From sequence record OZ035810.1: a stretch of 64,000 nucleotides of DNA. One strand, written 5' to 3'. The translations under genes were made by a program, and so were the position numbers. The notes under the pieces were generated by a model. That model was given only the letters and a program-made list of their open reading frames with translations. It did no database searches and was not told where the DNA came from. Shown one piece after another: positions 2 through 61,697 of the stretch. Position 1 is the stretch's first letter. Each line of letters opens with the position of its first letter. This DNA is from Gamaleyavirus AN24P2.

Positions 2-445
2 GGGCAGCAACACTACATTGATTTTGAACTAAAACGCGGAAGCTCTAACCCAGTGCAGAGTGTTAAAGTTGAAATTCTCAGCACAGATACTACAGTTCTG
101 TACCTTCGCAGAATAATCCTTATCGATACAATCTCCCGGTGGCAAAGGGTAATATTACCATTTATCCCTTCGGTATCTGGTCAAGTAATTGTAAGATTCA
201 CTTCTTCCACTTTTATCGAGGGCTCTGCTACTAACTTCATAGTAGGTAATCTTAATGTTTATATAAACAATAACCCCATCAATACAGGGCACAATGGTGG
301 GTTAGGTGGAACTTGGTCTATTCAGCACACTGTGCGAGGTAATCGCCATGAATGGTATGATGCTTCAGGCAATTTACGTGCTAAAGTAGGTGCCCCAACT
401 TCAGCAACTGATGGAGTTATCATTAGTGCTAATCCTGTAATTTGA
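2..445 (+). CDS. virion structural protein, C-terminal fragment (5' end upstream of window); possibly tail fibre/appendage
   Basis: Frame of ORF 53..445 stays open back to position 2 with no stop; the 'M' at 53 is a GTG, not a credible start; Gly/Asn/Thr-rich composition; adjacent to lysis and head genes. Confidence 0.45.
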   Translation, partial: GQQHYIDFELKRGSSNPVQSVKVEILSTDTTVLYLRRIILIDTISRWQRVILPFIPSVSGQVIVRFTSSTFIEGSATNFIVGNLNVYINNNPINTGHNGGLGGTWSIQHTVRGNRHEWYDASGNLRAKVGAPTSATDGVIISANPVI

Positions 446-452
446 GGTGATT

Positions 453-707
453 ATGGCTCTAAAATTTACTTTTGACTTTAATGGTATTATGGTAACCGAT
501 GGGGTACTTACTGTAAGCAAACCCATGATTGATGAGGAATCTGGAACAATTACCTTTGGGCTACTGTTCCAAGCAACTAGTGCAGACCCGCTACTGAAAT
601 CAGTAACGCTTAGTTGTCCCTATGATCCTTTTGGAGCTGACCCATTCACTCAGGCATACGCCTATATAAAATCCTTACCAGATTATAAATCTGCCGAGGA
701 AATTTAA
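453..707 (+). CDS. hypothetical protein
   Basis: ORF 447..707 begins with GTG; first ATG at 453 after GAGGTGA; followed directly by a terminator hairpin. Confidence 0.45.
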   Translation: MALKFTFDFNGIMVTDGVLTVSKPMIDEESGTITFGLLFQATSADPLLKSVTLSCPYDPFGADPFTQAYAYIKSLPDYKSAEEI

Positions 708-708
708 T

Positions 709-734
709 AAAAGCCCCTTACGGGGCTTTTCTTC
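709..734 (+). terminator. rho-independent terminator
   Basis: aagcccc-ttac-ggggctt hairpin followed by ttttct. Confidence 0.6.
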
Positions 735-829
735 TACCCCACTCTACTATAAATAAGTATTATCTTTTGGTCAGACTCTTCTGATACGTCCCAAATGGGT
801 ATCATTAAAGAAACATTAAGGACTTTCTC

Positions 830-1162
830 ATGAGCGATGAATCGACTTCGGTTCTTCTTGCCCGATTGGAGGAAAGACTGGAAACATTATTTAAGAACCA
901 AGAAAAGGAGGAGCGTTCCAAAGATAAACTGGAACAAACTCTATCTGGTTTAAGGGAGTCTGTTCAGCAAATGGAAGGCAGACTTAAAAACGTAGAGGAT
1001 AGCCTTGCTAAGTCTGAACCTACTATCGAAGAGTTTATTACCATAAAGCATAAAGTTGCTGGTGCTGGAATTTTTGGTAAGTGGGTATGGGCTATAGCAG
1101 GTGCAATCATTGGTGTATTGGCTGCTGCAAGACGGGAGATATTCGCATGGTTCGCAGGTTAA
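830..1162 (+). CDS. coiled-coil protein with C-terminal transmembrane segment (holin/antiholin-like)
   Basis: 110 aa; charged helical N-terminus, then GAGIFGKWVWAIAGAIIGVLAAA hydrophobic segment; immediately upstream of endolysin. Confidence 0.5.
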   Translation: MSDESTSVLLARLEERLETLFKNQEKEERSKDKLEQTLSGLRESVQQMEGRLKNVEDSLAKSEPTIEEFITIKHKVAGAGIFGKWVWAIAGAIIGVLAAARREIFAWFAG

Positions 1163-1407
1163 AAAGAAAGATAGAGCTAGTACCTAATTGGAAGAAGTCC
1201 TGGAAATGGGCATCTGTTCAGATTAGTACGTTTGGTTTAATTCTGTTTTCTGCTGTAGATATCATCCAACCAATGGTGACGGGACTACCTCGTCACATCC
1301 TGGAAGATATTCCTCATGGTTCCAATATTGCAATCGCACTGTTTGCCTTAAACATCATGGGTAGATTGATACGATTCCGTCCAAAGGAAGATTCACATGA
1401 AAGCTAA
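1147..1407 (+). CDS. small two-TM membrane protein, holin-like
   Basis: Internal ATG (MVRRLKRK...) of ORF 1081..1407; two hydrophobic segments; overlaps upstream stop and downstream lysin start. Confidence 0.45.
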   Translation: MVRRLKRKIELVPNWKKSWKWASVQISTFGLILFSAVDIIQPMVTGLPRHILEDIPHGSNIAIALFALNIMGRLIRFRPKEDSHES

Positions 1408-2032
1408 ACAGAAACTTGCTGCAAAAGGTGGTGCAGTGGGAGGGGTTATCGCTGCTATTCTGGGGGCAGTGTTTTATATGGAAGGAGGGTATGTAAATAA
1501 TCCTCGTGACCCAGGTGGTGAAACTAATCATGGTATTACCCAAGCTGTAGCTAAATCCCATAAAGAAGTTCTGGCTACTGAGTATGGTTGGGATGGTTCT
1601 ATGAAGGGTTTATCTAAAGAGATGGCTGCTGAGATATACATTGATGACTACGTACTTAAGCCTAATTTCGTAGCCTTCGCTAATATATCTCCTGCTATAA
1701 CACACAAACTGGTTGATGCTGGTGTTAACACAGGTGTAACCAGACCAGCTAAGTGGTTGCAGCAATCCCTCAATGAAATGTCCCGTAATGGCAAAGACTA
1801 CCCTAAAATACAGGTTGATGGTAAAGTCGGTGCAAGTACTGTTAATGCATATAAAGCATTACAGAAAAAGCGAGGCAAAGTTGCAGCATGTCGGGTAATG
1901 ATTAAGTTACTTGATGCTAAACAACTGAACCATTACACCTCATTAAACATGCCGGATTTTACGTATGGTTGGGTAGCTAACCGAATTGGCAATGTGCCAC
2001 TGGAGGCATGTAATGAAGATGCTAATCTCTAA
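1397..2032 (+). CDS. endolysin, GH108-type N-acetylmuramidase
   Basis: 211 aa; EGGYVNNPRDPGGETNHGIT matches the GH108 signature; N-terminal hydrophobic segment (possible signal-anchor). Confidence 0.75.
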   Translation: MKAKQKLAAKGGAVGGVIAAILGAVFYMEGGYVNNPRDPGGETNHGITQAVAKSHKEVLATEYGWDGSMKGLSKEMAAEIYIDDYVLKPNFVAFANISPAITHKLVDAGVNTGVTRPAKWLQQSLNEMSRNGKDYPKIQVDGKVGASTVNAYKALQKKRGKVAACRVMIKLLDAKQLNHYTSLNMPDFTYGWVANRIGNVPLEACNEDANL

Positions 2033-2519
2033 AGGTTGGCCTTATCTTCTGGTGGTGGTCCTTGGGGCCACCATGTACTTTTGGGGTAATTCCAACGGAC
2101 AGTCTACTGTTCAAAAGAAGTGGGATGACCAAAAGGCTGAAGACCTAAAGACAACGCAAAAATTGCAGGATAAATACAATGCTCTCCAAAGAAACCATAG
2201 TTATGAAGTCGGGATACTCACTTCACGGTTGCAGACGGCTGAAAGTAATTACGCAAGCGAGCTTGCTCGCGTTAGCAGTGATTACGACAGCCGGATGCAA
2301 CAGTCTGAAAGACGAGCATCGGTATATAAACGTCAAGCCGAAGCCGGAACCCTTGAGTGCAGAAGTCTTGCAAGCTATGCAGCCAGACTCGACAACAGTC
2401 TTGAAGAAGGCAGACGTTTGGTTGAAGAACTCCAGGCAACTGTTAGACTCCGTGACAACCAACTAATTGAGTTGGGTAAACAAATTCAGGCTGACCGTAA
2501 ACTTTTTGAACAGGAATAA
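2013..2519 (+). CDS. i-spanin (Rz-like)
   Basis: ORF 1986..2519 opens with TTG; ATG at 2013 preceded by GGAGG; N-terminal TM segment then charged coiled-coil region. Confidence 0.55.
2203..2466 (+). CDS. o-spanin (Rz1-like lipoprotein) embedded in the Rz gene in another frame
   Basis: ORF 2179..2466 lies wholly inside the Rz ORF; signal peptide ending ...LAVITTAGC (lipobox-like Cys) and Pro-rich mature part (VKPKPEPL). Confidence 0.5.
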   Translation: MKSGYSLHGCRRLKVITQASLLALAVITTAGCNSLKDEHRYINVKPKPEPLSAEVLQAMQPDSTTVLKKADVWLKNSRQLLDSVTTN

Positions 2520-2521
2520 CT

Positions 2522-4792
2522 ATGGAACACCAAGACACTTTTAAGCCTTTACCAGACCCGGCTCAATCAGAGAAGTTAACGGACTGGAAGAAGGAACCAA
2601 GTATCCAATTACTGAAGGGTGATTTGGAATCAGCTAAACCTGCTCACGATGCAATCATGGCACAGATTCGTGAGTGGAATGATCTTATGGAAGTTAAGGG
2701 TAAGGCTAAGCCACCAAAGGTGAAGGGACGGTCACAAGTCCAACCTAGACTGGTTCGCCGTCAGGCAGAATGGAGATATGCTCCATTGTCTGAACCATTC
2801 CTCTCTTCTAACAAACTCTTTAAGGTAACTCCGGTTACTTTTGAAGATGAATTAGCTGCACGTCAAAATGAACTGGTTCTTAACTACCAATTCCGTACCC
2901 AGCTTAATAGAGTAAAGCTGGTAGATGATTACGTGCACAGTGTTGTGGATGATGGTACTGGTATTGCTCGTATTGGCTGGGAACGTAAGACTGTTAAGAT
3001 TAAAACAGAAACTCCAGTATTCCAGTTGTATCCAATTGAGAACCAGGAACAAGCAGATGTTCTTCAACAGGCTCTACAGCTTCAGGCAGAAAATCCCCGT
3101 GAGTATGACGAGACAATGCCAGAGGATATTAAGGAAGCTGTTAACTACTTTAATGAAACTGGTGAAGCTACTTATGCAATCCAGACTGGGGTTACTGAAG
3201 TAGAAGTAGAGAAAGCACTGGTTAACAGACCTACCGTTGAAATGCTTAATCCTAATAACGTAGTTATTGACCCAAGCTGTAATGGTGATTTGGATAAGGC
3301 TCTGTATGCAGTTATCTCCTTTGAGACATGCAAAGCAGACCTTATGAAAAACAAAGACCGTTATCACAACCTAGATAAAATTGACTGGGAAAGTTCTAGT
3401 CCTATTACTGACCCAGACCATGAAAGTAAAACCCCTAGCGACTTCCAGTTTAAGGATGCACTACGTAAGAAAGTAGTTGCTTATGAGTACTGGGGATTCT
3501 ATGACATTAATGATGACGGTTCACTGGAACCAATTGTTGCTACCTGGATTGGTTCTACTCTTATTCGTATGGAGAAAAACCCATTCCCTGATGGTAAGTT
3601 ACCTTTGGTAGTTGTTCCCTACATGCCCCGTAAACGTGAACTCTTCGGTGAAGCTGATGCTGAATTGTTAGGAGATAACCAAGCAATTCTCGGTGCAACT
3701 ATTCGTGGAATGATTGACCTGCTGGGTCGTAGTGCAAATGGTCAACGTGGTTATCCTAAGGGAATGTTAGATACACTTAACCGTCGTCGATATGATGATG
3801 GACAAGACTATGAATATAACCCAATGCAAGGTAACCCTAGTCAGGCCATTATGGAACATAAGTTCCCCGAGTTACCTCAATCAGCAATAGTAATGACTCA
3901 GATGCAGAACCAGGAAGCTGAATCACTAACTGGTGTTAAAGCATTTTCCGGTGGTGTAACTGGTTCAGCTTATGGTGATGTAGCTGCTGGTATTCGAGGT
4001 GCACTTGATGCAGCATCCAAACGGGAGATGGCAATTCTTCGTCGATTAGCTAAAGGTATGGCAGACATTGGTACTAAGATTTGTGCAATGAATGCTGTGT
4101 TTTTATCTGAGAAAGAAGTAGTACGTATTACCAATGAGCAGTATGTAGAAATTAATCGTGAAGACCTTAAAGGTAATTTCGACATTGAGGTTGATATTAA
4201 TACTGCTGAAATTGATAACCAGAAATCTCAGGATTTGAGCTTCATGGTTCAAACATTGGGTAATACGGTTGACCAAACTATTACATTATCTCTTGTAGCA
4301 AAGATTGCAGAGCTTAAACGTATGCCAGACCTTGCTCATGAGTTACGTAATTGGAAACCACAGCCAGATCCTATGGAAGAACAGCTTAAGCAGTTAGCAA
4401 TTCAGAAAGCACAACTAGAGAATGAAGAGTTGAAAAGTAAGATTGCACTTAATAATGCTAAGGCTAAAGAAGCTGCTTCCAGTGGTGACCTTAAAGATTT
4501 GGATTATCTGGAACAGGAATCTGGTACTAAACATGCCCGAGATATGGAAAAACAAAAAGCACAATCTCAAGGAAACCAAAACCTTCAGATAACTAAGGCA
4601 TTGACAACACCCGTTAAAGAAGGGGAAACTACCCCCAACATATCTGCTGCTGTTGGATATAATACTTTGACTAACGGGAACTCTATACCAGAACGTGATT
4701 TAGCTGCTCAACAAGACCCGGCTTACTCACTTAGTTCCCAATACTATGACCCTAGCCAAGACCCAGCATCGGCTCTTGGTATGAACCTATAA
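2522..4792 (+). CDS. portal protein
   Basis: 756 aa; size and position upstream of scaffold-like and major capsid genes match N4-type head module. Confidence 0.75.
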
Positions 4793-4805
4793 GGCAGACC
4801 TTCAC

Positions 4806-5150
4806 ATGAGTAAAGAATCAACAATCGCTGGACTGGAACATCGACTAGAAGCTGCTAAAGGTGCAGTTGCACATGCAGAAGATGTACGTAAACTTCTGGA
4901 GAATCCACTGTTCCGTAAAGTAATTCTTCGCCAATTCTGTGTAGAAGATTGTGCACGTTACGTACAAGAGTCTGGTGACCCACTGCTTGAACCTAATAAC
5001 CGTGCAGATGCACTAAACATGGCTCAGGCTGCTGGTCACTTACGTCGTTGGCTCGACCTCGCCATTCGTATGGGCGAAAACGAAGCTGACGTTATTCTAC
5101 AGGTAGAAGAAGAACTCGATGCAGTTCGTGCTGAACCTGAAGACGAATAA
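4806..5150 (+). CDS. hypothetical head-module protein
   Basis: 114 aa ORF tightly packed between portal and acidic scaffold-like gene. Confidence 0.55.
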   Translation: MSKESTIAGLEHRLEAAKGAVAHAEDVRKLLENPLFRKVILRQFCVEDCARYVQESGDPLLEPNNRADALNMAQAAGHLRRWLDLAIRMGENEADVILQVEEELDAVRAEPEDE

Positions 5151-14351: not shown

Positions 14352-14415
14352 TTACACTGGCTTACTGTAGAGTAAGCTTCTTATATACGATATAAGTTTG
14401 AACAGGAAACATGCT

Positions 14416-17400
14416 ATGTCAACATTTGACCGTCTGGCAGGTTTCGCAGACAGCATCACTAATGCTAAGCAAGTCGATGTCTCTACTGCTACCTCTCAGA
14501 AGCAAGCTGCACAAGGGCAAAGCCCTTTCCAATTAACCCCAGAGAATGCTTACAATCTCCAAACTGGACGAGTAGGTAATTTAGGAATCGGTGCGTTCGA
14601 ACCAGGTTCCCTCCAAGCTGATTTCACTCAGGCTTCCCCATTAGAAATTCTTAATAAATATGGTAATGAGCAAGGTCTACAGATTCTTAATAGCCGAGCT
14701 AATGCTGCTGATGCTGTACGTCAGGACTTATCTAAACAACGTACTAACGCAGAAGCATTTGGTGATACTCTTTCTGGTGTTGGTCTTGGTGTTGCTAATA
14801 CCCTGGGGGGCATTGCTGCTCTTGGCACAGGTTTGGTCAATGATAATGCCGGGGCATCCATTGCTTCCGGGATGGATTGGTTGAATGAAGGTGTGCACAA
14901 TCTCCAGTCTGATGCACTGAATGTTACCCGTAAGGTTGTTCAGAATCAGAACCAGATTTCTGCTCAAAAGAACCAGAAACTTTACGAACAAGACATCAAA
15001 AATGGGGAGAGCAGCTTGGTTGCCTCCCTGTCTCGCATTGGTCGTGATGCTTTTGATTCTGTTGCTAATACACTTGATAACGGTATGGCTGCTACTGATG
15101 GGCTAAGTGAAGGTGTTGGTTCCCTCTTTACTGGTGGTCCACTTATCCGTGGTGTATCTGCACTCGGCAAAGTAATGGTAGGTGGTGATAAAGCCGTTAA
15201 GGGTATTACCTTAGCTGCTGAGTTAGGTTCTCGTCCTGCACAGGTTGCATTGTCTGCTGGTCGTGTTGCTGCACCTGCTATTGCAATTGGTGGTATGGAA
15301 GCTGGTGGTGCATACCAACAGACTGCTTCTGAAATCATGAAGATGTCACATCAAGAATTAGCAAGTAAGTCTCCTGTTTATCAACAACATATTGCTGATG
15401 GTTTATCTCCTGATGAAGCTCGTCGTCAGACTGCATCTGAAACAGGTATCATTGCTGCTGGCTTAACTGCTCCGGTTGCTGCTGCTACTGGTCCACTGGT
15501 ATCTAAATTTGAACTTAATCCACTTAAGGTAGGTTCACTGGTTGGTGCTGGTTCTAACATGCTGCGTGAAACTGTAGAAGAAGGTATCCAGTCTGGTACT
15601 AGTCAGTTTGCACAGAACAAAGCAATTCAAGGTAATGTAGATGCTAAACGTGACTTGCTTAAAGGTGTTGGTGAACAAGCAGGTCTTGGTGCACTTTACG
15701 GCTTCGGTAGTGCTGGGGTTGCTCAAGCTCCAGGTGCAACTGTTAAAGCTGTTGGTGCTACTGCTGGTCCAGCCCTTCGTACTACTTTAGCCGGTGCTTC
15801 CCTGGTTGGTAGTGCACTAGCAAAAGCTGCATCTCCTCTTACTAACATCCTGGTTCAACGTGGTGAAGAAGTTGCTAAACGAAATGAACAAGCATCCCCT
15901 GTAGCTGATGCTACGGTTAATGCTGCTGCACAGGAAGCTGCTGCTCAGGCAGAACAAGCACAAGCAACTGTACAGGAAGCAGTAGATGCAATGGATATTT
16001 CTCCGGAAGAGAAAGCTGCTGCTACCCAGTATGCTGCTGACTTAACTCAGGCAATGAAGTTTGACCCGGTAGAATTGGAACAAACTAACCCAGCAATCCG
16101 TGAAGCTGTTTCTGGTTCCACTAACCGTGTTGAAGCTATTCAGAAGATGGCTGACCTGGTTAATACTGCTGAGGATCCTAACGTTCAAATGGAAGCTGCA
16201 ATCCAGATGTATGACAATATCATGTCTATGGATAGCTTCATTAACCGTGACCCGGGTGCTCTGGCTAATCTGGAACAAGGTTCTCCTGCTGCTGCGATTG
16301 TAGACCAGTTCTCCGGTCTGATGGCTAACGTACAGAATACTCCGAAGGTACTCCGTGCATTTCGTGCCATCCATTCCATGATTCAGGAACAGGCTGAAGC
16401 GGGTAAATTGAAAGCTACTGAAGAAGCTAACCAAGCTCAGGCAAACAACATTGCTATGGCTGCTGATGTGTCTCCAGAAGTTCTGGATGTAGAATCAGTG
16501 AACATGGTTCTGAAGCACGCAAGTGAAGGTAAGATTACATTAGGGAATCGTCAGCGTGCTGCCCTGCAATCTGCTGCTGCTCTATTGCAAGGAGCACGAG
16601 AATTTGACGCTAAAGCAGAAGAACTGGGCTTACGTCCTCAAGACATTGTTAGTAAACAAATTAAAACCGACGAATCTCGTTCTAATGAAGGCCAGTACTC
16701 TGCGTTGCAACATGCTAAACGCATTCGTTCTGCGTACAACTCTGGTAACTTCGATTTGGCTTCCGCTTATCTCGACGACTTTATGAAGTTCGCCCAGCAC
16801 ATGCAGAATAAGGTCGGAGCGTTGAATGAGCATTTGATTTCTGGGAATGCGGATAAGAATAAGTCTGTCCATTATCAGGCTCTTACTCCCTCCCGTGAAT
16901 GGGTACGTAGTCGTACTGGCCTCGGTGTCAATCCGTATGATACCAAGTCTGTTAAGTTTGCCCAGCAAGTAGGACTGGAGGCCAAAACCGTAGCTGATAT
17001 TGTTAATGCACTTGCTACGGCTTACCCGGAGCTTAATGTTTCTCATGTTAAAGTTACTCCATTAGATTCACGTCTGGACAAGCCTGCTGCCCAGGTGGTT
17101 AAAGAGTTCCGTCAGGGCAATCTTGATGCTGCTCAATCCCAACAGACCAATGAACCAGTGAATCAGGTTGATGAAACTCCTGTTACAAAACAGGAACCAG
17201 TTACCCCTACTGTACAGACTAAACCCTCTGTTAGTGAAGCTGTTAAAACAGAACCTACTATTAAAGAGTCTAAACCACAGTCTGTAAAAGAACCTGAGAA
17301 CCAGTCCGAAAAGCAGGATGCTGCCATCACTAATGAGGATACCACTCAGGAAGTAGCTGAAACTAAAACGGAAATGGAAGCAGTGTTCCCTGTCTATAAC

Positions 17401-20400
17401 AATGACAAGACACCGAGCCAGTTCCTTAAAGCATTTGCTCTGCCGGAAGAACCTAAGACTCGTACCATTGGTTCTGAATCTCCTTTGACTGATGTTAAGC
17501 AAGCACTGTCTTCTGCTGCTCGCTTTGAAGCATTCACACAAAAAGAAAATAACGCTCTCACAAGTGATGTGATGAAACGTTATCAGGACTTACTGGGCTT
17601 TGGTGAAACTCTGAAGACTACTCTTTCTGACCGTCTGGCTAAGTTCCTTGCTAACAAAAATGTTGGTAAACGTTTTGCAGAAGGTACTGAAGCTAACCGT
17701 TGGGTAGGTGGTAAACTGCTGAATATCGTTGAACAAGACGGTGACACCTTTAAGTTCAATGACCAGTTGTTAGAGACTGCTGTACTTGCTGGTCTGCAAT
17801 GGCGACTAACTGCTACACAGAATGCTGCTGTTAAAGACATGAAAGACATAGCTGCTATTACTGGTGTAGAAGCATCCCTGTTACCTGAAGGTATTCTGGC
17901 TGAATTTGAGAATGCTCAGACTCTGGTTGAAGCTACTAGCTCACTGGCTCAAAAGATTGAATCCTACTGGGGTTTGAATCGTAATCCTAATGCACCACTG
18001 GGCTATACCAAGGGTATCCCAATGGCAATGGCTACAGAGATTCTGTCTTCCCTTATTGAGATGGGTGAAGTTAAAGAGTCTATGCTGGATGTGTCTGAAA
18101 TTGACCCAGCCTCCGATAAGACTGTAGGTCTGTACACCATTGAGAAGCTGGATGATAACGATGCCATTAACAATTTCCCTACTGCTATTGAGGAAGCTGT
18201 CCTCGTAGAACCAGAAGAGAAAATGTACTTTGGTGATGATATTCCTTCCGTGGCTCAAACTCAGTTACGTAATCCGGCTGTTAAGAATACCCCTGAACAG
18301 AAAGCTGCTCTTAAAGCAGAACAGGCTACTGAGTTCCGTGTACACATGCCTATGGTTAACTTCTATGAAGCATTAGGTCGTGACAACATTCTGGAACTGA
18401 TGGGTGCTGGTACGCTTAATCCTGAACTACTGAACGTAAACACTGCTAAATCACTGGAAGGTAAGAACCTGTCAGTGTCTATGGCATATGATTCCTTGTT
18501 TGGGGTAATCAATCAGGTTCAGGAACAGGAGAATGGACTGGATACTCCTATTCACTATGGTTATAACATGACCCGTGTAGGTCGTATGCAGATGCTTGGT
18601 AAGAATAACCCACAATCCAGTAAGCTGGTGCGTGAAGCAATTCTGCCAACCTTCTCTACTATTGACTTGAGTAATGAAAACAGCCAAACGTTCTCAGACT
18701 TCCAGTTAGGTCTGGCTCAGGCATTAGGCATCAAGGTACATAACATGTCCCGTGAAGCTATGTCTGAAAAGCTGACTAAAGCTCTGGAAGGTAACCTGAA
18801 ACCTGCTGTTGATATGATGGTTGAGTTTGATAAGTCTGGTCACTTACCAGTTGATGCAGTGGATATTCTGAAGACGTCTCTTGGTGGCGATAAATCCTTC
18901 GTAGCTCTTATGGCTCTTATGGAATATGCCCGTTACCTGAACAGTGATGACCGTGCCAACTTTAATACCCCACTGTACGTTGAAGCCGATGGTGTAACTA
19001 ACGGACCAATCAACGCAATGGTATTAATGACGGGTGGTAAGTTCACTTCAGACTGGGTTAAGAATACTGCTAAAGGTGGTCTGTTCTTTGGTAAAGCTGG
19101 TAAGACTATGAATGAACACCGTTCACAGGATGACAGTGTTGACTTGTATGAAGCATCTACCAACAGTCTGCAACAAGCTCTGAATGAGTTACGTACTACT
19201 TACCGTAACAACGTTCCGGTTATGAACCAGATGAATCATCTCCAAAAGTTAATGGACCTGTTCATTAAAGACTTTAACCTGAACGAAGACGGTACTCTGG
19301 ACCTGAAGCGTGGTATCGCTAAAAACCCACTGACTATTACCATCTATGGTTCCGGTGCTCGTGGTATTGCAGGCAAGATGGTTAGTGCAATTACTGATAC
19401 CATCTATGAACGCTTCAGTGACGTTCTGCAAGCTCGCGCTGCTGACCCTAGCATTTCCCCAGCTATGGCAATGTTTGGTAAAGAGGCTGCGTCTGAGACT
19501 GATGCTCAGGCTATGCTGGATACTTTCCTTACATCTATGGAAGCACTGACTGGTAATGTTCCAGTTATGCGTAAAGGTGAGCTGTCTATTCAACAAGTAG
19601 AAGGTGCTCTGACTGGTAAGTTAGACCCCCAGAAGTTTACTGTATCTGGTAATGCTCTGAAGAACCTGCAAGAGAACATGCTTCACTTGTTCGTTGAACC
19701 AATGCGTACTGGTATTCGAAATACTGTTGGTGAAGGTCTAATGCACTCTACTGAGAACTTGCAGAAGGCTACCCAGATTCAGTCTCTGGTATTGCAAGAC
19801 ATGTTCCAGCAAGCAGTACAGACTAAGCTGGCAGAAAAAGAAAAAGACCCAACATGGAAGAAGGGTGATTTCTTAACTCAGAAAGAACTGAACGAAATCC
19901 AGGAATCATTGTCTCCACTGGCTCCAATGATTGAGACTGGTTCGCAGACTTTCTACATTGCTGGTAGTGAGAATACTGACGTTGCTAACCAAGTACTGGC
20001 TACCAACTTAGATGACCGTATGCGTGTGCCAATGAGCATCTATGCTCCTTCACAGGCAGGTGTTGCAGGTATTCCATTTATGACCATTGGTACTGGCGAT
20101 GGCATGATGATGCAGACCCTTTCTACTATGAAAGGTGCTCCGAAGAATACCCTGAAAATCTTTGATGGTATGAACATTGGTATCAATGACATCACTGATG
20201 CAAGTCGTAAAGCTAACGAGGCTGTATATACTTCCTGGCAGGGGAATCCTATCAAGAATGTTTATGACTCCTTTGCTAAGTTCATGAAGAACGTAGACTT
20301 CAGCAAACTGTCCGATGAAACTAAACAGGCTATCGCTAAGTCTGCTTTGGAATATGACCAGCGTGAGGGTGCTACTGATGCCTTATTACGTGCAGGTGCT

Positions 20401-23400
20401 GAACAGATTGAGCGTAACTTGCGTAACATTGCTCTTGGTGTAGATATTCGCCATAAAGTAATGAACCAGGTACAGACTACTGTTGACCAGATGGCTGCTG
20501 TAGGTGCTCCTTATGTGAACAACGGTAAAATCTCTCTGGAAGGTCTGACTGTAGACCAGCAAGTAGCTAAGCTGAACGAATTGTTTGATGCTGAATTAAA
20601 CAAACGTCGTGATGCAGTACGTGCTGCTAAAGCAGAACCAGTGAAAGAAGTACCAGCAATTGAGCAGGTTGGTCGTGTACTGAAGTCTGGTGTACGTCTG
20701 CTGTCTAATACTGCTATCTCTAAGCTGGCTAAAGAGATGTCTCAGGAACAACAAGCAGTACTGAAAGAAGTACAGAAATCCCCTGCTGCTAAAGACTACA
20801 AGGTTGTCTATGGTACACCTGCCCAACTGGATGCTTACGCTATTGAGAAGAACATTACTCGCCCAGCACCGGAAGATATTGAAGCTGCTGAAGCAGGTAA
20901 TGCATACGGCTGGACTAACTTCGAAGATAAGACCATTTATCTAGTTACCCCTTCCTTAGAAACTCTGGTTCATGAATTGGTACATGCTTCTACTTTTGAA
21001 TCTGTACTGACTCACTATGAAGGTACTCCTAATGAAGCAGTTCAGAACATTGAAGACCTGATGAACCAGTTCCGTGCTCTGGATGTTAAGGATGAATCTC
21101 CGGCAGTACGTGAAGCGTATGCTGATGCACTTAATACCATTAATGGTCACTTGTCCAATGGATTCATTGAGCCATCAATGGCTAAAGCTGCTGCACTTAA
21201 CGAGTACATGGCTTGGGGCTTAACCAACCGTGAACTGATTAGTAAGCAGAAGAAAACCACTGCACTTAAGACTATGGTTCAGGCTGTGTATGAAGCAATC
21301 AAGCGTCTGGTATTTGGGCGTAAGAAAGCACCAGCTAATGCAGATGATATGTTCTCCGGCTTACTGTTTAACTCTGCTGTAGTAATGCGAGGACAAGCTC
21401 CTACTGCTGCTGTAGCTAAAGATACTACCCTGTTCCATAACAAAGCATACGGTGATAATACTCGTCTGGAAGAATTAGGAAAAACCTTCGATAAGTTAAT
21501 TACTGACTACATTGGTTCAGAACCAGTACAACAAGTAATTCGTAAAGGTAAGTTCTCTGATGCAGTAGTGAATGCAACTAAAGTAACCCGTGATGTTCAG
21601 GCTCATGGCTTCGCTATGAATATGCAGGAACAGCGTCTCTTTACTAACATTGTTGCTGCTCTGGCTACTGAGGCTGCTATTAACCCTGCTGCTTTGGCTC
21701 GTGCACAGGAATACTACACGCATGTTACTAAGAACCTGACTGTTGAAGCATTTATGGCTGACCCAGATAGTACTAACCCTGCTGACCGTTATTACGCTCA
21801 ACAGAAGTTCGATACCATCATGGGTGCTAACAATATTGAGTTTGATGCACAGGGACGTTCTTCCTTACTGCCTACCTTTGTTGGGCTGGCAATGGTAAGT
21901 GAAGAAGTACGTAAGGTACTGGCTGATATTCCTGTTATGAAAGCAGATAAGCAATCCGGTAATACAGTTGATGCAATGCTGACTAACATTGGTACTGCTG
22001 CAATGGCTAGTCTGAATGCTCGTGTAGCAGGTGATACCAAAGCTACTAATGTACAGGAAGGTATGGATGCACTGGCTCAAACAATCATGCAGACTAGCCT
22101 TAATGCACAGTCCTTTTATGATTCTGTTGCTACTCCTAGTGGTAATGCTATTGACCGTGCTAACCAGTATCTGGTGGACTCTATTGATGTATTGTCTACC
22201 CGTGCTTTAGAAGGTGCTCGTGAAGTTGCAGCTAATACCAAGAACCCGTTGGTTAAAGGTGCTGCTCATGCTGCACAACTGATTGCTGCTATTGCTACAG
22301 AGAAGAATGGTGAAATCGTAGCCGAAGGAGTTATGGCTGCAATGAACCAGGGTAAGGTATGGCAACCTTTCCATGACCTGGTTAATGACTTAACTGGTCG
22401 TACTAAGAGCAATGCTTCTGTGTATGATTTGATTAAGGCAGTTCGTGCACAGGTACAGGCTGACCGTCAACAATTCCGTGAACATTTGCCTACTACTATC
22501 GCATCTAAGTTCAGCCGTAAGCTGACTAATGATGAGTGGAAAGCAATGCACACTGGCATGGGTAAAACTGACTTGGCTGTCCTGCGTGACACTATGTCTT
22601 TGGCTGAAATCCGTGATTTGCTGTCGGACCAAAAGATTGTTGACCGTGAAGTGAATAAGCTGGAAGCAGATTTGCAGAAGCAAGCTGGACGTAACTGGCC
22701 TCTGATTAGTCGTAAATCTAAGCAACTGGCTCAGTTTATGATTAATGGTACAGTTGGTAATAACTTGCTGCGTAATGCTACTGCAATTTCTCGTTTACTG
22801 GGTGAACGTAAGACTACTAGTTCTATTGTAGATGTAGCTAAACTGGATAAACTGATTACCCTGTATGCACTGGAAGCAATGAGTAATACTGACCGTGAGA
22901 TGCTATCTTCACTGGCTCAAACAGAAGTTGATGGGATTGATTTTGCTACTTCTTACCTGGTTGGTCAGCGTAAAGATGAAATGGCTAAAGCTAAGTCTGA
23001 CATGCGTGCAACCCTGAACCAGTACAAAGGTTACATTCCTGGTGAGACTAAACAAGGTGTTAACCTGATTGTTGCTGAAGACAGTCAATTTGCTGATTTG
23101 ATTGAGAAGTCCTATGTGCGACTGGGTACTTATCAGGGTAGCTCTGCTAATCGTGGTCCAGCACGTAGTTACTACTTTGCACCAGTACAGGCACAGGCTC
23201 CATTCTCACAGGGTATCTTACAGAACGTTCGTAATACTGCTGGTGGTGTAGACCTTGGTACAGGCTTTACGATGGGTACAATGGTAGCTGGTCGTATCAC
23301 TGACAAGCCTTCCGTAGACCGTATCACTAAAGCACTGGCTCGTGGTGAACGTGGTAATGAACCACTGCTGCCTGTGTATGATGACAAAGGTAATGTAGTT

Positions 23401-24774
23401 GCCTATGAGCAATCTATTGACCCTAACATGCTGAAGCACATTGAGGGTGAGAACCATCTTGCTCGTGCAATTGGTGTATGGCGTGGTCGTCAGGTAGAGG
23501 AAGCTAAGGCCCAGCGTTTCAACGATATGCTGATTGAAAATCTGCATAGCATGTACGAGAACGACATTAAAATGTCTGCCTCTAATAAGTCCCAGTATGT
23601 GAACCTTCTTGGTTCTAAACTGGACCCAGTAACTGCTGATGCTCTTAAACTGATGAACACTGAAACACGTCAGAAAGCAGAAAGCCTGTTTGGACCCGGT
23701 GAACTGTGGGTTCGTCGTGATATGCTGAATGATGCACTAGGCTATCGTGCAGCTTCTGTAGGTGATGCCTGGTCTGGCAATTCTCGTTGGTCCCCAGAAA
23801 CACTGGATACCTTCAAGAAAGCTATGTTAGGTGTATTTGGCAACCGTGCTTACAAGTACGTAATGGGTGGTGAGAACCTGGTTCAGAACTTAGTTAAAGA
23901 AGCTAAGACTCTGATTGTAGTTAAGTCAGTAGTTGTACCTGCTGTTAACTTCTTAGCTAACCTTTACCAGATGGTTGGTCGTGGTGTACCTGTTAAGAAC
24001 ATTGCTAAGAGCATTCCACAGAAGACTGCTGAGATTAACCAGTACCTGAAATCTCGTCTGCGTCAGGTAGATGCAGAAGCAGAATTACGAGCAGCTACTA
24101 ATCCGAACCAGATTCGTAAACTTAAAGCTGAGATTCAGTCCATTACTGATAGTCATAAGCGTATGAGTATCTGGCCTCTATTAGAAGCTGGGGAGTTCTC
24201 TTCAATTGCAGATGCTGGTATTGGACGTGATGATATCCTGATTACTGAGGGTAAACTCCATGAATACATGGATAAGCTGGCTGATAAGTTACCTAAGTCA
24301 GTACGTACTGCTGGTCGTTATGCACTTATCACTAAGGATACTGCTTTGTTCCAGGGTATCCAGAAAACGGTTGAGTACTCTGACTTTATCGCTAAAGCAA
24401 TCATCTATGATGACTTAACTCAGCGTAAAGGTAAGACACGTGAAGAAGCACTTGGACGTGTAACTGAAGAGTTCATTAACTATGACCGTCTGCCGGGACG
24501 TTTCCGTGGCTATATGGAAAGTGTTGGTCTTATGTGGTTCTACAACTTTAAGATTCGTTCTGCAAAAGTTGCAGTGTCCATGATTCGTAATAACCCGGTC
24601 CATGCAGCAATGGCGATGTTGGCTCCAACTCCTACCATGTTTGGTAACGTTGGCTTACCTATTCAGGACAACATCTTTAGCATTGCTGCTAAGGATAGTC
24701 TGGATTACTCTTGGGGCTTTGGACAAGGGCTTCGTGCTCACAACCTGAACCCTTGGATGAACCTGGTAAACTAA
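14416..24774 (+). CDS. virion-encapsidated RNA polymerase (giant vRNAP)
   Basis: Single ORF of about 10.3 kb; track start 14398 is TTG, first ATG at 14416 preceded by AGGAAA; a protein of this size in this position is diagnostic of N4-like phages. Confidence 0.85.
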   Translation: MSTFDRLAGFADSITNAKQVDVSTATSQKQAAQGQSPFQLTPENAYNLQTGRVGNLGIGAFEPGSLQADFTQASPLEILNKYGNEQGLQILNSRANAADAVRQDLSKQRTNAEAFGDTLSGVGLGVANTLGGIAALGTGLVNDNAGASIASGMDWLNEGVHNLQSDALNVTRKVVQNQNQISAQKNQKLYEQDIKNGESSLVASLSRIGRDAFDSVANTLDNGMAATDGLSEGVGSLFTGGPLIRGVSALGKVMVGGDKAVKGITLAAELGSRPAQVALSAGRVAAPAIAIGGMEAGGAYQQTASEIMKMSHQELASKSPVYQQHIADGLSPDEARRQTASETGIIAAGLTAPVAAATGPLVSKFELNPLKVGSLVGAGSNMLRETVEEGIQSGTSQFAQNKAIQGNVDAKRDLLKGVGEQAGLGALYGFGSAGVAQAPGATVKAVGATAGPALRTTLAGASLVGSALAKAASPLTNILVQRGEEVAKRNEQASPVADATVNAAAQEAAAQAEQAQATVQEAVDAMDISPEEKAAATQYAADLTQAMKFDPVELEQTNPAIREAVSGSTNRVEAIQKMADLVNTAEDPNVQMEAAIQMYDNIMSMDSFINRDPGALANLEQGSPAAAIVDQFSGLMANVQNTPKVLRAFRAIHSMIQEQAEAGKLKATEEANQAQANNIAMAADVSPEVLDVESVNMVLKHASEGKITLGNRQRAALQSAAALLQGAREFDAKAEELGLRPQDIVSKQIKTDESRSNEGQYSALQHAKRIRSAYNSGNFDLASAYLDDFMKFAQHMQNKVGALNEHLISGNADKNKSVHYQALTPSREWVRSRTGLGVNPYDTKSVKFAQQVGLEAKTVADIVNALATAYPELNVSHVKVTPLDSRLDKPAAQVVKEFRQGNLDAAQSQQTNEPVNQVDETPVTKQEPVTPTVQTKPSVSEAVKTEPTIKESKPQSVKEPENQSEKQDAAITNEDTTQEVAETKTEMEAVFPVYNNDKTPSQFLKAFALPEEPKTRTIGSESPLTDVKQALSSAARFEAFTQKENNALTSDVMKRYQDLLGFGETLKTTLSDRLAKFLANKNVGKRFAEGTEANRWVGGKLLNIVEQDGDTFKFNDQLLETAVLAGLQWRLTATQNAAVKDMKDIAAITGVEASLLPEGILAEFENAQTLVEATSSLAQKIESYWGLNRNPNAPLGYTKGIPMAMATEILSSLIEMGEVKESMLDVSEIDPASDKTVGLYTIEKLDDNDAINNFPTAIEEAVLVEPEEKMYFGDDIPSVAQTQLRNPAVKNTPEQKAALKAEQATEFRVHMPMVNFYEALGRDNILELMGAGTLNPELLNVNTAKSLEGKNLSVSMAYDSLFGVINQVQEQENGLDTPIHYGYNMTRVGRMQMLGKNNPQSSKLVREAILPTFSTIDLSNENSQTFSDFQLGLAQALGIKVHNMSREAMSEKLTKALEGNLKPAVDMMVEFDKSGHLPVDAVDILKTSLGGDKSFVALMALMEYARYLNSDDRANFNTPLYVEADGVTNGPINAMVLMTGGKFTSDWVKNTAKGGLFFGKAGKTMNEHRSQDDSVDLYEASTNSLQQALNELRTTYRNNVPVMNQMNHLQKLMDLFIKDFNLNEDGTLDLKRGIAKNPLTITIYGSGARGIAGKMVSAITDTIYERFSDVLQARAADPSISPAMAMFGKEAASETDAQAMLDTFLTSMEALTGNVPVMRKGELSIQQVEGALTGKLDPQKFTVSGNALKNLQENMLHLFVEPMRTGIRNTVGEGLMHSTENLQKATQIQSLVLQDMFQQAVQTKLAEKEKDPTWKKGDFLTQKELNEIQESLSPLAPMIETGSQTFYIAGSENTDVANQVLATNLDDRMRVPMSIYAPSQAGVAGIPFMTIGTGDGMMMQTLSTMKGAPKNTLKIFDGMNIGINDITDASRKANEAVYTSWQGNPIKNVYDSFAKFMKNVDFSKLSDETKQAIAKSALEYDQREGATDALLRAGAEQIERNLRNIALGVDIRHKVMNQVQTTVDQMAAVGAPYVNNGKISLEGLTVDQQVAKLNELFDAELNKRRDAVRAAKAEPVKEVPAIEQVGRVLKSGVRLLSNTAISKLAKEMSQEQQAVLKEVQKSPAAKDYKVVYGTPAQLDAYAIEKNITRPAPEDIEAAEAGNAYGWTNFEDKTIYLVTPSLETLVHELVHASTFESVLTHYEGTPNEAVQNIEDLMNQFRALDVKDESPAVREAYADALNTINGHLSNGFIEPSMAKAAALNEYMAWGLTNRELISKQKKTTALKTMVQAVYEAIKRLVFGRKKAPANADDMFSGLLFNSAVVMRGQAPTAAVAKDTTLFHNKAYGDNTRLEELGKTFDKLITDYIGSEPVQQVIRKGKFSDAVVNATKVTRDVQAHGFAMNMQEQRLFTNIVAALATEAAINPAALARAQEYYTHVTKNLTVEAFMADPDSTNPADRYYAQQKFDTIMGANNIEFDAQGRSSLLPTFVGLAMVSEEVRKVLADIPVMKADKQSGNTVDAMLTNIGTAAMASLNARVAGDTKATNVQEGMDALAQTIMQTSLNAQSFYDSVATPSGNAIDRANQYLVDSIDVLSTRALEGAREVAANTKNPLVKGAAHAAQLIAAIATEKNGEIVAEGVMAAMNQGKVWQPFHDLVNDLTGRTKSNASVYDLIKAVRAQVQADRQQFREHLPTTIASKFSRKLTNDEWKAMHTGMGKTDLAVLRDTMSLAEIRDLLSDQKIVDREVNKLEADLQKQAGRNWPLISRKSKQLAQFMINGTVGNNLLRNATAISRLLGERKTTSSIVDVAKLDKLITLYALEAMSNTDREMLSSLAQTEVDGIDFATSYLVGQRKDEMAKAKSDMRATLNQYKGYIPGETKQGVNLIVAEDSQFADLIEKSYVRLGTYQGSSANRGPARSYYFAPVQAQAPFSQGILQNVRNTAGGVDLGTGFTMGTMVAGRITDKPSVDRITKALARGERGNEPLLPVYDDKGNVVAYEQSIDPNMLKHIEGENHLARAIGVWRGRQVEEAKAQRFNDMLIENLHSMYENDIKMSASNKSQYVNLLGSKLDPVTADALKLMNTETRQKAESLFGPGELWVRRDMLNDALGYRAASVGDAWSGNSRWSPETLDTFKKAMLGVFGNRAYKYVMGGENLVQNLVKEAKTLIVVKSVVVPAVNFLANLYQMVGRGVPVKNIAKSIPQKTAEINQYLKSRLRQVDAEAELRAATNPNQIRKLKAEIQSITDSHKRMSIWPLLEAGEFSSIADAGIGRDDILITEGKLHEYMDKLADKLPKSVRTAGRYALITKDTALFQGIQKTVEYSDFIAKAIIYDDLTQRKGKTREEALGRVTEEFINYDRLPGRFRGYMESVGLMWFYNFKIRSAKVAVSMIRNNPVHAAMAMLAPTPTMFGNVGLPIQDNIFSIAAKDSLDYSWGFGQGLRAHNLNPWMNLVN

Positions 24775-52957: not shown

Positions 52958-52990
52958 GGTAAAAATAAAAACCCTCCATTAGGAGGGTTA
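52958..52990 (-). terminator. rho-independent terminator
   Basis: aaccctcc-atta-ggagggtt hairpin with A-run on +. Confidence 0.55.
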
Positions 52991-53170
52991 GATAATTACA
53001 TAGTAGATAGCAAAAGCTATCCATCCTGCCATTACAAAGCAGCCAAGTGAGTATGCTCCATAGTAACAGTAAGCAAACTTAGACTTGTGGGCACGAACTA
53101 TCGTAGCCAGAACCAGTACAGATAAAACTATCAGTATTATCTGAGAGATTACTTCAAAAGGGATTAGCAT
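52988..53170 (-). CDS. small membrane protein
   Basis: Internal ATG of ORF 52988..53254 preceded by GGAGGT; two hydrophobic segments. Confidence 0.4.
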   Translation of the reverse strand: MLIPFEVISQIILIVLSVLVLATIVRAHKSKFAYCYYGAYSLGCFVMAGWIAFAIYYVII

Positions 53171-53355
53171 AGTTATTACCTCCAAGCAAAAAATAAAGCC
53201 CCACTCCCGAAGGAATGAGGCTAGTTTATTAATACACTTGCACAGTCCAGCCATTGTAAGAATCTACAAAGACAATCCAGTCATCTTCTGCCCATAGTCT
53301 AGAACAAACTCCTGGGACTTTGAATCTGTATAAACCTTGTCTATAAGCTTCTTTT

Positions 53356-54573
53356 TTAGCTAAGGGCATAATCGGCCTCCAGAATGTCTTGCCAGAGGCT
53401 GTCATCCAGCTTACCAGCAGAGAACTCTTGTCCAAGTACCTGGGACAGGATGAATCCCAGTAGGTCACTCTTCGCAATGTCAGACAGAATCTGATTGTAC
53501 TGACGACGTAGGTCATTACCATAGTTAGGGTGGCAACGGAAGCAGTCATGTACAGTCATTACAGGGAATGGCTTCTTAGGCATAGTGTCAATCATATCTG
53601 CTACTACTTGACGGTCTACCAATGCAATAGTATTCGGGTCAAGGAAGTCTAGGATAGACAGCGACAGGAATCCAGATTTCTCATAATGATTCCAGATTTC
53701 CATAGTTTTCTCTTGGTTCCCTTCAATAACAGGGTATTCACTTGGTCCGATATCGCACAGTTCACGTACATAGGCAACCAGTTTAGGATCGAAGTTACAA
53801 CGACGCAGCATCTCACGTACCACCATTCCATCAATAGAGTGAGTGATGTTAGCAGAAAGCATACGGGTCTTCTCTTCAGTACCCTGAACCATACGAGTGA
53901 TGTCAAATGGCTTACCTAAGAAGTTAACAGTTTGTACTTCTGGAACCATGACCTTAATGACAGCATGGAAGTTGTCAGGTAATACCCATACGTAACGGTT
54001 AGCATCCGGGTTACCACATTGCAGTAAGAACTTGTTCAATGCCCAAGGACCACTAGCAACAGTTTCCATTACATTCTCAAAAGTCTTGAGACGAATACCT
54101 TCACCGAATACTTCTTTAGGCTTGGCTTCTGAACCGTAGAATGCAGTCATAACTGCCTGCTTAGTGTCACTACGTTTAATACGAGATGCTTCACCAAGGA
54201 TGTCCAGCATCTTATGATAGATAACTGTATAAGCATCACGACGTAATGGCTTACCATTCTCTCCCATGTAATTAACTACGTTACACAGTTCAGCAGCAGA
54301 ACGGTCACCAGTCAGGCAAGCCAGTAACTGCAATCCTGACGATGTAGCATCCAGAGCCACGGCATACCCAATAGGCTTACCTGCTTTCATGTCTTTCCAT
54401 GCGTTTAAGCCAGCATAGAACAGTGCAGATTCTTCAGCTTCATCTACCAGATTAAGTAGGTTAGCCTCATTCTCATCGAACCAAGTAATACGTTCATCCC
54501 AGGTCTTTTTATCCAGACCATAGTTATTGGCGATGTCTACTTTCAAGTATTCTTTAGCGGTTAACAGTTGCAT
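53356..54573 (-). CDS. RNA polymerase II large subunit (C-terminal part of a split T7-like RNAP)
   Basis: 405 aa; T7 RNAP motif A-like DATSSGLQLLA and motif C-like VHDCF. Confidence 0.75.
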   Translation of the reverse strand: MQLLTAKEYLKVDIANNYGLDKKTWDERITWFDENEANLLNLVDEAEESALFYAGLNAWKDMKAGKPIGYAVALDATSSGLQLLACLTGDRSAAELCNVVNYMGENGKPLRRDAYTVIYHKMLDILGEASRIKRSDTKQAVMTAFYGSEAKPKEVFGEGIRLKTFENVMETVASGPWALNKFLLQCGNPDANRYVWVLPDNFHAVIKVMVPEVQTVNFLGKPFDITRMVQGTEEKTRMLSANITHSIDGMVVREMLRRCNFDPKLVAYVRELCDIGPSEYPVIEGNQEKTMEIWNHYEKSGFLSLSILDFLDPNTIALVDRQVVADMIDTMPKKPFPVMTVHDCFRCHPNYGNDLRRQYNQILSDIAKSDLLGFILSQVLGQEFSAGKLDDSLWQDILEADYALS

Positions 54574-54630
54574 CTTATGTTCCTTTTGCTTCTTGGCTCC
54601 TCACTATGGAGAGCCTGCTTATTGGATGAA

Positions 54631-54870
54631 TTAGCCAGCATTAAATGATGACAATACTATTCCTGGTTCCACACCTTCGGTGGCAATACCTAGGTACTCG
54701 ATGTGCACTCTCTCAGGAGAGGAACACCAGGCGGAAGACAGATTCCATTCTCCGTCTGGATTAATAAGGCGAGCTTCTTCTTTAGTTTTGGCCGCTACAA
54801 CGGCAGAATCGTATGTATCCCACCCTGTGTTCTCTTCCTGGCTAATAAGCCATAGTTTTAATCTACTCAT
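54631..54870 (-). CDS. hypothetical small protein between the two RNAPII subunit genes
   Basis: 79 aa ORF. Confidence 0.4.
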   Translation of the reverse strand: MSRLKLWLISQEENTGWDTYDSAVVAAKTKEEARLINPDGEWNLSSAWCSSPERVHIEYLGIATEGVEPGIVLSSFNAG

Positions 54871-55681
54871 CGTTTACTAACTCCTTATTAGCGAACTCCA
54901 GTACAGCTTTGTTGTAGCTGGTTCCCTGATAGTTAATGTGATAGCCCTGAGCGTAAGTACGCCCACGTTTGTCATATTTGTGACCTAGTGAGAAGTTATT
55001 ACCTTCTTTGGACACTAACTCCATTACTTCCTTAGCAGTACGGCTGTACTTCTCAAAGGCTTTAACACGTTTCTCATAATCCTGACGGGTTTCGCCCTCT
55101 TTGGGCTTATCCATATTAGGACGGGAGTCTTTTACATAGTTAGCAACGTCCCAGTTAATGCTTAGACGTTGATTATTCATACGGTTGATGTGGTCAAGAC
55201 AGACATCCATCTCATGATGGTTCTTCTTGAGGATGATACTTCCTCTGCTCTCGTAGTAACCTGTATCACGGTTACACAGAACAGGCTTAGGAGCACTTAC
55301 GATAGGTAATGGATATTGGAATGCTTCCAGTTCCATCTGTACATCTTCACTAATCTCATAGATAACACCGAATTTGTCGATGGTAGGGTCATAGTTGAAG
55401 CAGTCATTCTCTGCCATTTTATACAGACAGTCGGCGATGTACTGAGCATCATCTGAGTGGTTCATGAGAGAGCCAATCATAGTCTGAAGGTCAGCACGTT
55501 TATGTAGGGCAATCTGCACCATTGCATCAATGAGCAGCTTATAATCAATTTCCAAATAGGCAGCGAATGCCTTAAAGTCAATTTCTTCGGAGTCCTCAAA
55601 TTCCTTCCTCATACGAGGGAGTAACTGGCATTTATTAAACAGTGTTTCTAAAGTCTTTTGATGCTCAATGGATGCGTACAT
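54863..55681 (-). CDS. RNA polymerase II small subunit (N-terminal part of a split T7-like RNAP)
   Basis: 272 aa; KYDKRGRTYAQGYHINYQG parallels T7 RNAP DWRGRVYAVSMFNPQG region. Confidence 0.7.
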   Translation of the reverse strand: MYASIEHQKTLETLFNKCQLLPRMRKEFEDSEEIDFKAFAAYLEIDYKLLIDAMVQIALHKRADLQTMIGSLMNHSDDAQYIADCLYKMAENDCFNYDPTIDKFGVIYEISEDVQMELEAFQYPLPIVSAPKPVLCNRDTGYYESRGSIILKKNHHEMDVCLDHINRMNNQRLSINWDVANYVKDSRPNMDKPKEGETRQDYEKRVKAFEKYSRTAKEVMELVSKEGNNFSLGHKYDKRGRTYAQGYHINYQGTSYNKAVLEFANKELVNDE

Positions 55682-56181: not shown

Positions 56182-56234
56182 CGCATATTCTCCTAAATGT
56201 GATTAATAACCAAAAGCTGCGGAGCAGCTATTAC

Positions 56235-60588: not shown

Positions 60589-60722
60589 TTTGTACTCTCC
60601 AGATAAATGATTATTTGATTGATGGGTTTGTCTGTCGGTGACTAAACCCAAGAAAAGACTTAAGATTTCAATGATTAGTGGATGCATTTACATCATCCAT
60701 AAGACGCGGAGCGTCCTGGTTT

Positions 60723-61496: not shown

Positions 61497-61697
61497 GATG
61501 ATAGCTCCAATAGTTGATGATAGGACGACATGTCCATAACATGCGGAGCATGTGTAACGTGTAGGGTGGGGTAGGGTAGCGGCTACACCGTCAACATACC
61601 GGGGGGGCTAGTTGAGTGTAATGGTGTAGCCTCAGCCACACCACTGTAGCTGTACATAGCTATGACCAAAATGGTATGCAAAAATATGATAGCTATC

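Follow-up and report, generated by a model that had tools for sequence, protein, structure and literature searches.

We analyzed a 64,000-nt stretch of DNA from Gamaleyavirus AN24P2 (record OZ035810.1; hereafter the window), and studied within it a minus-strand locus at 53356..55681 that carries the genes for the two subunits of a split T7-like RNA polymerase (RNAP) and, between them, a small open reading frame (ORF) of 79 amino acids (aa). The deposited genome of Gamaleyavirus AN24P2 (OZ035740) is 100% identical to the window over the 3.4 kb around these ORFs and over the whole right-hand 24 kb, and many Escherichia phages of the same genus (Schitoviridae, Enquatrovirinae) are 90–94% identical to this region. 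An ORF of 3458 aa at 14398..24774 has the size of the giant virion RNA polymerase (vRNAP) that marks N4-like phages, and the N4-like gene order of gp12, gp14 and gp17 is present in relatives. The phage is N4-like, a Gamaleyavirus of the Schitoviridae. A preliminary description of the locus, made from the sequence alone, had given its coordinates and the lengths of all three ORFs exactly as we find them; all three lie on the minus strand (Table 1).

Table 1. Features of the RNAP locus and its surroundings, in the predicted order of transcription; positions are those of the window
Feature	Position	Strand	Basis or remark
Predicted vRNAP early promoter hairpin, TAGCTGC-TCC-GCAGCT followed by TTTGG	56212..56232	-	sequence form only
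All promoter-like hairpins (stem-GC TCC GC-stem)	56212-56232; ~60700-60722; ~61537-61557	-	
Free-standing homing endonuclease gene, 158 aa	55705..56181	-	HNH_3 3.3e-17, AP2 8.5e-5, PHROG 99 5.8e-61
RNA polymerase II (RNAPII) small subunit, gp15-like, 272 aa	54863..55681	-	PDB 6DT7_A, PHROG 2166
79-aa accessory gene, PHROG 5444 member, acidic alpha/beta, ends SFNAG	54631..54870	-	start overlaps gp15 stop
Hairpin GGCTCTCC-ATA-GTGAGGAGCC	54595..54615	-	folding; ~20 nt 5' of gp16 start
RNAPII large catalytic subunit, gp16-like, 405 aa	53356..54573	-	PDB 6DT7_B, PF00940, PHROG 2051
Terminator-like hairpin, 11-bp stem then T run	53197..53222	-	consensus scan only; ~130 nt 3' of gp16 stop

The 272-aa product matched chain A of PDB 6DT7 (N4 'RNAP1', gp15, 269 aa) over residues 3–269 with an E-value of 2.6e-117, and its PHROG match had an E-value of 1.4e-114. 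The 405-aa product matched chain B of the same structure (gp16, 404 aa) over residues 1–405 (E 2.7e-189), with further matches to PHROG 2051 (1.5e-174) and to the Pfam family RNA_pol (8.5e-14). Catalytic motif A (D-x-S-x-S-G-x-Q) and motif C (H-D-x-F) are both present in the 405-aa product, the motif A region ALDATSSGLQLL at residues 73–84 and TVHDCF at residues 340–345; the strings DATSSGLQLL and VHDCF, quoted in the preliminary description, lie in this product and are conserved in its alignment with 6DT7_B. The gp15-like part comprises the N-terminal region, thumb and DX2GR of a T7-like RNAP (domain assignment from PMC4496689), and the gp16-like product comprises the palm and fingers with motifs A, B and C. 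On the 816-position PHROG 414 RNAP profile, gp15-like residues 118–270 align to positions 228–424 and gp16-like residues 6–150 to positions 427–596. A set of IMG/VR contigs recovered by the gp16 profile (L073–L095; ~27% identity to gp16) contains unsplit, single-polypeptide RNAP homologues, a useful outgroup for dating the split. In 14 of these distant homologues, not a single position separates the match to gp15 residues 208–272 from the match to gp16 residue 6 (gap 0). It follows that the two ORFs encode complementary halves of a single-subunit RNAP of the T7 type, which is what the preliminary description had proposed and what has been published for N4 RNAPII (PMC4496689). The same gap-free abutment rules out the 79-aa ORF as a missing middle piece of the ancestral RNAP.

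Since the two products are 65–68% identical to the biochemically and structurally characterized N4 enzyme (PMC4496689), they are predicted to form a heterodimer that transcribes middle genes. Both are full-length homologues of the N4 RNAPII subunits (PDB 6DT7, 6DT8, 6DTA), with lengths of 272 and 405 aa against 269 and 404 aa, and the gene order, split point and catalytic motifs are held in common. The two loci differ in what surrounds the split: the N4 genes lie 47–50 nt apart with no ORF in between, whereas here the 79-aa gene stands between the subunit genes and an HNH endonuclease gene stands upstream. In Shigella phage pSb-1 (L011 / L029, 4001–5214), the gp16 homologue appears as two overlapping matches with a stop or frameshift inside, which points to a disrupted large-subunit gene or else to an error in sequencing.

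The 79-aa ORF is, to judge from its family membership and its pattern of substitution, a genuine protein-coding gene. Its product matched PHROG 5444 with an E-value of 4.9e-24, residues 4–79 aligning to positions 1–82 of the 82-position profile, and orthologues with 79–100% identity occur in 13 Gamaleyavirus records. The median pairwise ratio of nonsynonymous to synonymous substitution rates (dN/dS) was 0.13 for seven orthologues of the 79-aa gene, compared with 0.06 for gp15 and 0.14 for gp16 in the same genomes. The value of 0.13, together with the PHROG 5444 match, rules out a spurious ORF and bears out the preliminary description, which had taken the interposed ORF to be real and of unknown function. 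A Shine-Dalgarno sequence, AAGGAG, lies 10 nt 5' of the ATG, and the 79-aa gene and gp15 share 8 nt, the start of the one overlapping the stop of the other (ATGAGTAG; the coding strand across the junction reads AAGGAGTTAGTAAACGATGAGTAG). This is the usual arrangement for translational coupling, and translation of the 79-aa gene would thus be coupled to that of gp15. The protein contains 12 Asp/Glu and 6 Lys/Arg residues, and such an excess of acidic residues, counted in the sequence, speaks against DNA binding.

We surveyed the spacer between gp15 and gp16 in 80 related IMG/VR loci. Spacer length ranged from −9 to more than 3,200 nt, with 0 to more than 10 ORFs and at least three kinds of homing endonuclease. 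Besides the ORF-free N4 spacer, we found a 53-aa ORF (PHROG 15352) in Bp4 and ECBP1; a 53-aa ORF followed by the 79-aa ORF in IME11; a 168-aa HNH endonuclease in UE-S5a, UE-M3, UE-M6, L009 and L012; an endonuclease VII (EndoVII)-like endonuclease of 193–204 aa in L007 and pSb-1; and, in Kaypoctavirus, a 98-aa ORF accompanied by nothing, a 74-aa ORF, a 169-aa HNH endonuclease or a PHROG 5444 member. The 79-aa gene was present in 13 of 59 matching records, with ~78% of Gamaleyavirus records lacking it; N4 lacked it as well, as did further Kaypoctavirus loci and all remaining N4-like loci of the survey. As to whether the interposed ORF is conserved in relatives, a check proposed in the preliminary description, 13 Gamaleyavirus records have an orthologue, but N4 and most Gamaleyavirus records do not. 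The preliminary description had also implied that a gene at this position is unusual, and this is not supported: N4-like phages as a rule carry genes between those for the two subunits. The 'G7C-type' RNAP organization, in which the subunit genes are spaced by 0–8 unrelated genes, HNH endonucleases among them, has been described (Amgarten et al. 2017, PMC5418858), and insertions of small genes at the gp15/gp16 junction were likewise recorded by Wittmann et al. 2014 (PMC3915230). Our survey reproduces this published layout, and the variability and layout of the spacer at this locus are already known in kind; the published accounts differ from ours in that they do not characterize the 79-aa PHROG 5444 cargo or the boundaries of the cassettes. 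The polymerase part of the locus holds nothing new, its sequence being deposited, a close homologue solved and the spacer genes documented.

The boundaries of these cassettes are clearest in UE-S5a and UE-S5b, two phages from one study that were reported to be >98% similar and that both grow on the same host (PMC11927229). Comparison of UE-S5a (L003) with UE-S5b (L198) showed both flanks of the spacer to be 98.5% identical. Between these flanks, UE-S5b has a 278-nt cassette consisting of the 79-aa gene and a hairpin, and UE-S5a has a 541-nt HNH cassette in the same place. Identity between the two drops over the last ~100 nt of gp15 and recovers sharply ~12 nt before the gp16 ATG. The pair shows that a working RNAPII does not depend on the 79-aa gene, and it offers a ready-made natural comparison.

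Traces of exchange were also found at the gp15 3' end in other relatives. In IME11 (L002), the gp15 3' end is present a second time as a diverged copy of 26 nt (ATAAGGAGCTAGTAAACGATGAGTAG), which lies just 5' of the 79-aa ORF and thus flanks the 53-aa ORF; the window lacks the 53-aa ORF, and its gp15 has the C-terminus ...NDE in place of ...NED. In L009 / L020 (3782–3844), a remnant coding for the last 21 gp15 residues lies downstream of the HNH gene. These remnant gp15 3' ends suggest that insertions land inside the 3' end of gp15 and bring a replacement end along with them. Because a sharp block swap, as between UE-S5a and UE-S5b, and remnant gp15 3' ends are the expected marks of cassette exchange, we infer that cassettes have probably been exchanged at the gp15 3' end by recombination combined with endonuclease-driven gene conversion. 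T4-like phages have genes that are split or flanked by free-standing homing endonucleases, for example nrdA of Aeh1, which is split by mobE. The locus described here resembles the Aeh1 nrdA/mobE type in having an essential gene in two pieces with homing endonuclease genes at the junction, a flank that is diverged or recoded (here the final ~100 nt of gp15) and a leftover piece of the target sequence. It differs in that the RNAPII split is ancient and fixed in the family, and in that the cargo here is no endonuclease. The spacer is a clean, naturally occurring case of cassettes being exchanged where an essential gene is split, and the block swap, the diverged gp15 3' end and the remnants fit the idea that homing endonucleases created the split and keep reshaping it.

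To describe the family to which the cargo belongs, a profile of 40 diverse homologues was searched against 1.84 billion proteins. The search returned 6179 cluster representatives (50% identity) at E ≤ 1e-3 and 3708 at E ≤ 1e-10. Nearly all members are stand-alone proteins of 78–110 aa, and no informative domain was found in the N-terminal extensions of the longer ones. GenBank phages with a member of the family include jumbo phages of Erwinia and Salmonella, phages of Acinetobacter, Rhizobium and Rhodococcus, a Mu-like Vibrio phage and a T7-like Proteus phage. When genomes from 185,579 species were scanned with a single exact pattern, only 14 matches were found, mostly in metagenome-assembled genomes, and on these distributions the family looks virus-restricted. 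The 79-aa protein had no match in Pfam (none at E ≤ 10), NCBIfam or PADLOC, and we found no mention in the literature of phrog_5444, or of SFNAG in the sense used here. A PDB sequence match to 6xi1 ('flagellin hook IN motif', E 2.9e-9) was dismissed as an artefact: it arises from four identical repeats, each scoring 8.7 bits with an individual E-value of 24. Identity as a free-standing homing endonuclease was likewise rejected: the protein has no HNH, GIY-YIG, EndoVII or LAGLIDADG domain and no nuclease fold match.

The AlphaFold2 model of the 79-aa protein (mean pLDDT 88) is a small alpha/beta fold of the order strand-strand-helix-strand-strand. Foldseek gave no match for this model in the PDB, and its matches in BFVD were uncharacterized viral proteins only. 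The conserved core of the family, LxLISQ ... DTYDSAVVAA ... EEAR ... P ... W, is present in the window protein, and the most conserved residues are the polar Q11, D18, T19, D21, S22, S75 and N77, together with W48 and P38. The C-terminus is almost invariant. We examined 277 family sequences, 265 of which had the C-terminal motif, and in 264 of these 265 the chain stops exactly at S-F-N-A-G (246 SFNAG, 13 SYNAG). The window protein ends ...SSFNAG and is a typical member that has all conserved residues and the SFNAG terminus, with no differences; the Kaypoctavirus copies end SFNAA. As a large, conserved family with no Pfam or NCBIfam model, no structure solved for a member and no solved fold relative, PHROG 5444 is a reasonable target for anti-defence and host-takeover screens.

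We also asked where members of the family reside relative to RNAP genes. In two Klebsiella phages of the genus Kaypoctavirus, a 37%-identical member occupies the same slot, directly upstream of gp16. When family members are ranked from the Gamaleyavirus side, these Kaypoctavirus copies fall at positions 230–265 of 277, and members from Vibrio and Rhizobium phages are 54–55% identical. Shared ancestry of the Gamaleyavirus and Kaypoctavirus copies in the slot and independent capture at a hotspot are equally possible, because the proteins are short and divergent (37% identity) and the ranking is asymmetric. No gp15 or gp16 homologue was found within 4 kb at any of the more than 90 non-Gamaleyavirus loci bearing the family that were searched; the only two loci with one were from Gamaleyavirus. 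The neighbours of family members at 79 IMG/VR loci are small, tightly packed genes on the same strand, and even the most frequent neighbour family occurs at no more than 6 of the 79. The PHROG 5444 family therefore appears to have no general connection to RNAP. The tie between the 79-aa ORF and the polymerase that the preliminary description had implied is not supported by these observations, the gene being optional and its family occurring mostly in phages without a split RNAP nearby.

Taken together, the data make it probable that the locus is an ordinary N4-like RNAPII operon in which the 79-aa gene, a non-polymerase accessory gene, is swappable cargo of a variable spacer. The injected vRNAP would read the operon from a hairpin promoter, through the HNH gene, the gp15-like gene, the 79-aa gene, a conserved hairpin and the gp16-like gene to a terminator. 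The gp15-like and gp16-like products would then assemble into the heterodimeric T7-like RNAP for the middle genes, with the 79-aa gene expressed early and translationally coupled to gp15. Comparative genomics shows the hypervariable spacer to be rewritten again and again, probably by recombination and homing-endonuclease traffic, with the 79-aa gene as its present cargo. We infer that the 79-aa protein is no polymerase subunit. It is more probably a dispensable, host-directed accessory factor, which would act on a host target, in host takeover or counter-defence, through the polar patch formed by Q11, D18, T19, D21, S22, S75 and N77 and through its fixed C-terminus.

An alternative to cargo status is that the 79-aa protein is a lineage-specific cofactor or regulator of RNAPII: a third subunit, an aid to heterodimer assembly, or an analogue of N4 gp1, gp2 or the promoter-melting protein 'X', kept between the subunit genes so that all three proteins are co-expressed in fixed proportion. 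The requirement of N4-like RNAPII for small cofactors that differ between lineages (PMC7145618, PMC4496689) is consistent with such a role, and the 79-aa protein resembles N4 gp2 and LUZ7 Drc (PMC7145618) in being a small, early, lineage-specific protein of an N4-like phage. Occupation of the same slot in two genera, the coupling to gp15 and membership in the same predicted early transcription unit point the same way. However, a cofactor is expected wherever its cognate RNAPII lineage occurs, and the 79-aa gene is not: it is lacking in N4, in the majority of Gamaleyavirus records and in the remaining N4-like loci of our survey, some Kaypoctavirus loci among them. Moreover, the near-isogenic UE-S5a and UE-S5b differ by this gene yet share a host, and the family is found overwhelmingly in phages with no RNAP gene nearby. 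The 79-aa protein is also acidic, unlike the basic cofactor Drc, which binds single-stranded DNA, and no Drc-like fold was returned. The low ranking of the Kaypoctavirus copies leaves common descent in the slot unproven. We therefore regard a cofactor role as quite improbable. It is unlikely, too, that the gene is a mere passenger, of no use to the phage, which selfish elements carry along as homing-endonuclease-driven gene conversion moves whole spacer cassettes between co-infecting phages. The swapping of the whole spacer, hairpin type included, as a block with sharp boundaries would be explained in this way, as would the HNH and EndoVII genes in the same slot of relatives and the remnant copies of the gp15 3' end. 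A passenger would not be expected to be under purifying selection as strong as that on gp16, however, and a protein whose family runs to thousands of members, with residues that hardly vary and an invariant C-terminus, clearly has a function; the protein also has no nuclease motifs. Selfish traffic accounts for the movement of the gene and not for its conservation, so that it complements the swappable-cargo explanation rather than competing with it.

The fixed C-terminus invites two further readings. One is that the 79-aa protein serves as a small tag conjugated through its C-terminus, or that carboxylate-amine ligases use it as a substrate; it would then be comparable to Pup, ubiquitin or the RimK substrate S6, with ...NAG-COOH as the ligation site. 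In addition to the exact stop after S-F-N-A-G, this idea draws on a 64%-identical member, P0032, on a contig from a non-N4 phage (L181; JGI 3300010375, 1–4813), where it lies between Amidoligase_2 and RimK-like ATP-grasp genes and also adjoins GATase and COOH-NH2 ligase genes. No second example of an Amidoligase/ATP-grasp neighbourhood was found among the other family loci checked, and we consider a tag or ligase substrate extremely unlikely. The other is that PHROG 5444 is an unrecognized, phage-wide class of effectors whose fixed free C-terminus (...SFNAG-COOH) is the working end, either joined by a carboxylate-amine ligase to a target or small molecule, in the manner of a viral Pup- or ubiquitin-like tag, or plugging a host enzyme. 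We rate this very unlikely in its full form; were it true, the repeated presence of the family in the RNAPII spacer, in two genera of N4-like phages, would be explained by selection for expression that is very early and keeps pace with that of the polymerase subunits. In a milder version, the family may represent a new, widespread anti-defence or host-takeover protein.

The remaining features of the locus are consistent with an early operon. GCTCCGC occurs at three sites only in the window, all of them on the minus strand in the early region, in perfect palindromes, and followed by T(A/T)TGG. These hairpins have the same form as the putative promoters P1–P4 of KP8, which are of the N4-derived vRNAP type (PMC6950046 Table 1), and the one upstream of the HNH gene is predicted on this resemblance to be a vRNAP promoter. 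The HNH gene is a precise ORF-sized insertion relative to UE-S5b, situated between this predicted promoter and the gp15-like gene. The hairpin upstream of gp16 keeps its position in three genera, being found in N4 (L004), in Kaypoctavirus and in other Gamaleyavirus (also in L013, L020–L026 and L036). Its stems vary (AGCC/GGCT, GGGC/GCCC, GGTT/AACC, GAGCC/GGCTC), with 8–9 bp in the window, its flanks ATGC and AAGA.GC are conserved, and the type of hairpin travels with the cargo cassette. We ruled it out as a vRNAP promoter because the GC-TCC-GC loop that the three promoter-like hairpins share is missing from it. The motif ATCCAAWAAG showed no enrichment. The predicted early transcription unit would thus comprise the promoter, the HNH gene, gp15, the 79-aa gene, gp16 and the terminator. 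Downstream of gp16, an 88-aa ORF is listed at 52988..53254 on the minus strand; it belongs to PHROG 12530 and is called 'gp16.1' in relatives. Its translation probably begins at an internal Met, which would give a 60-aa product with two hydrophobic segments, and the terminator-like hairpin, a strong one, falls inside the 5' extension of this ORF.

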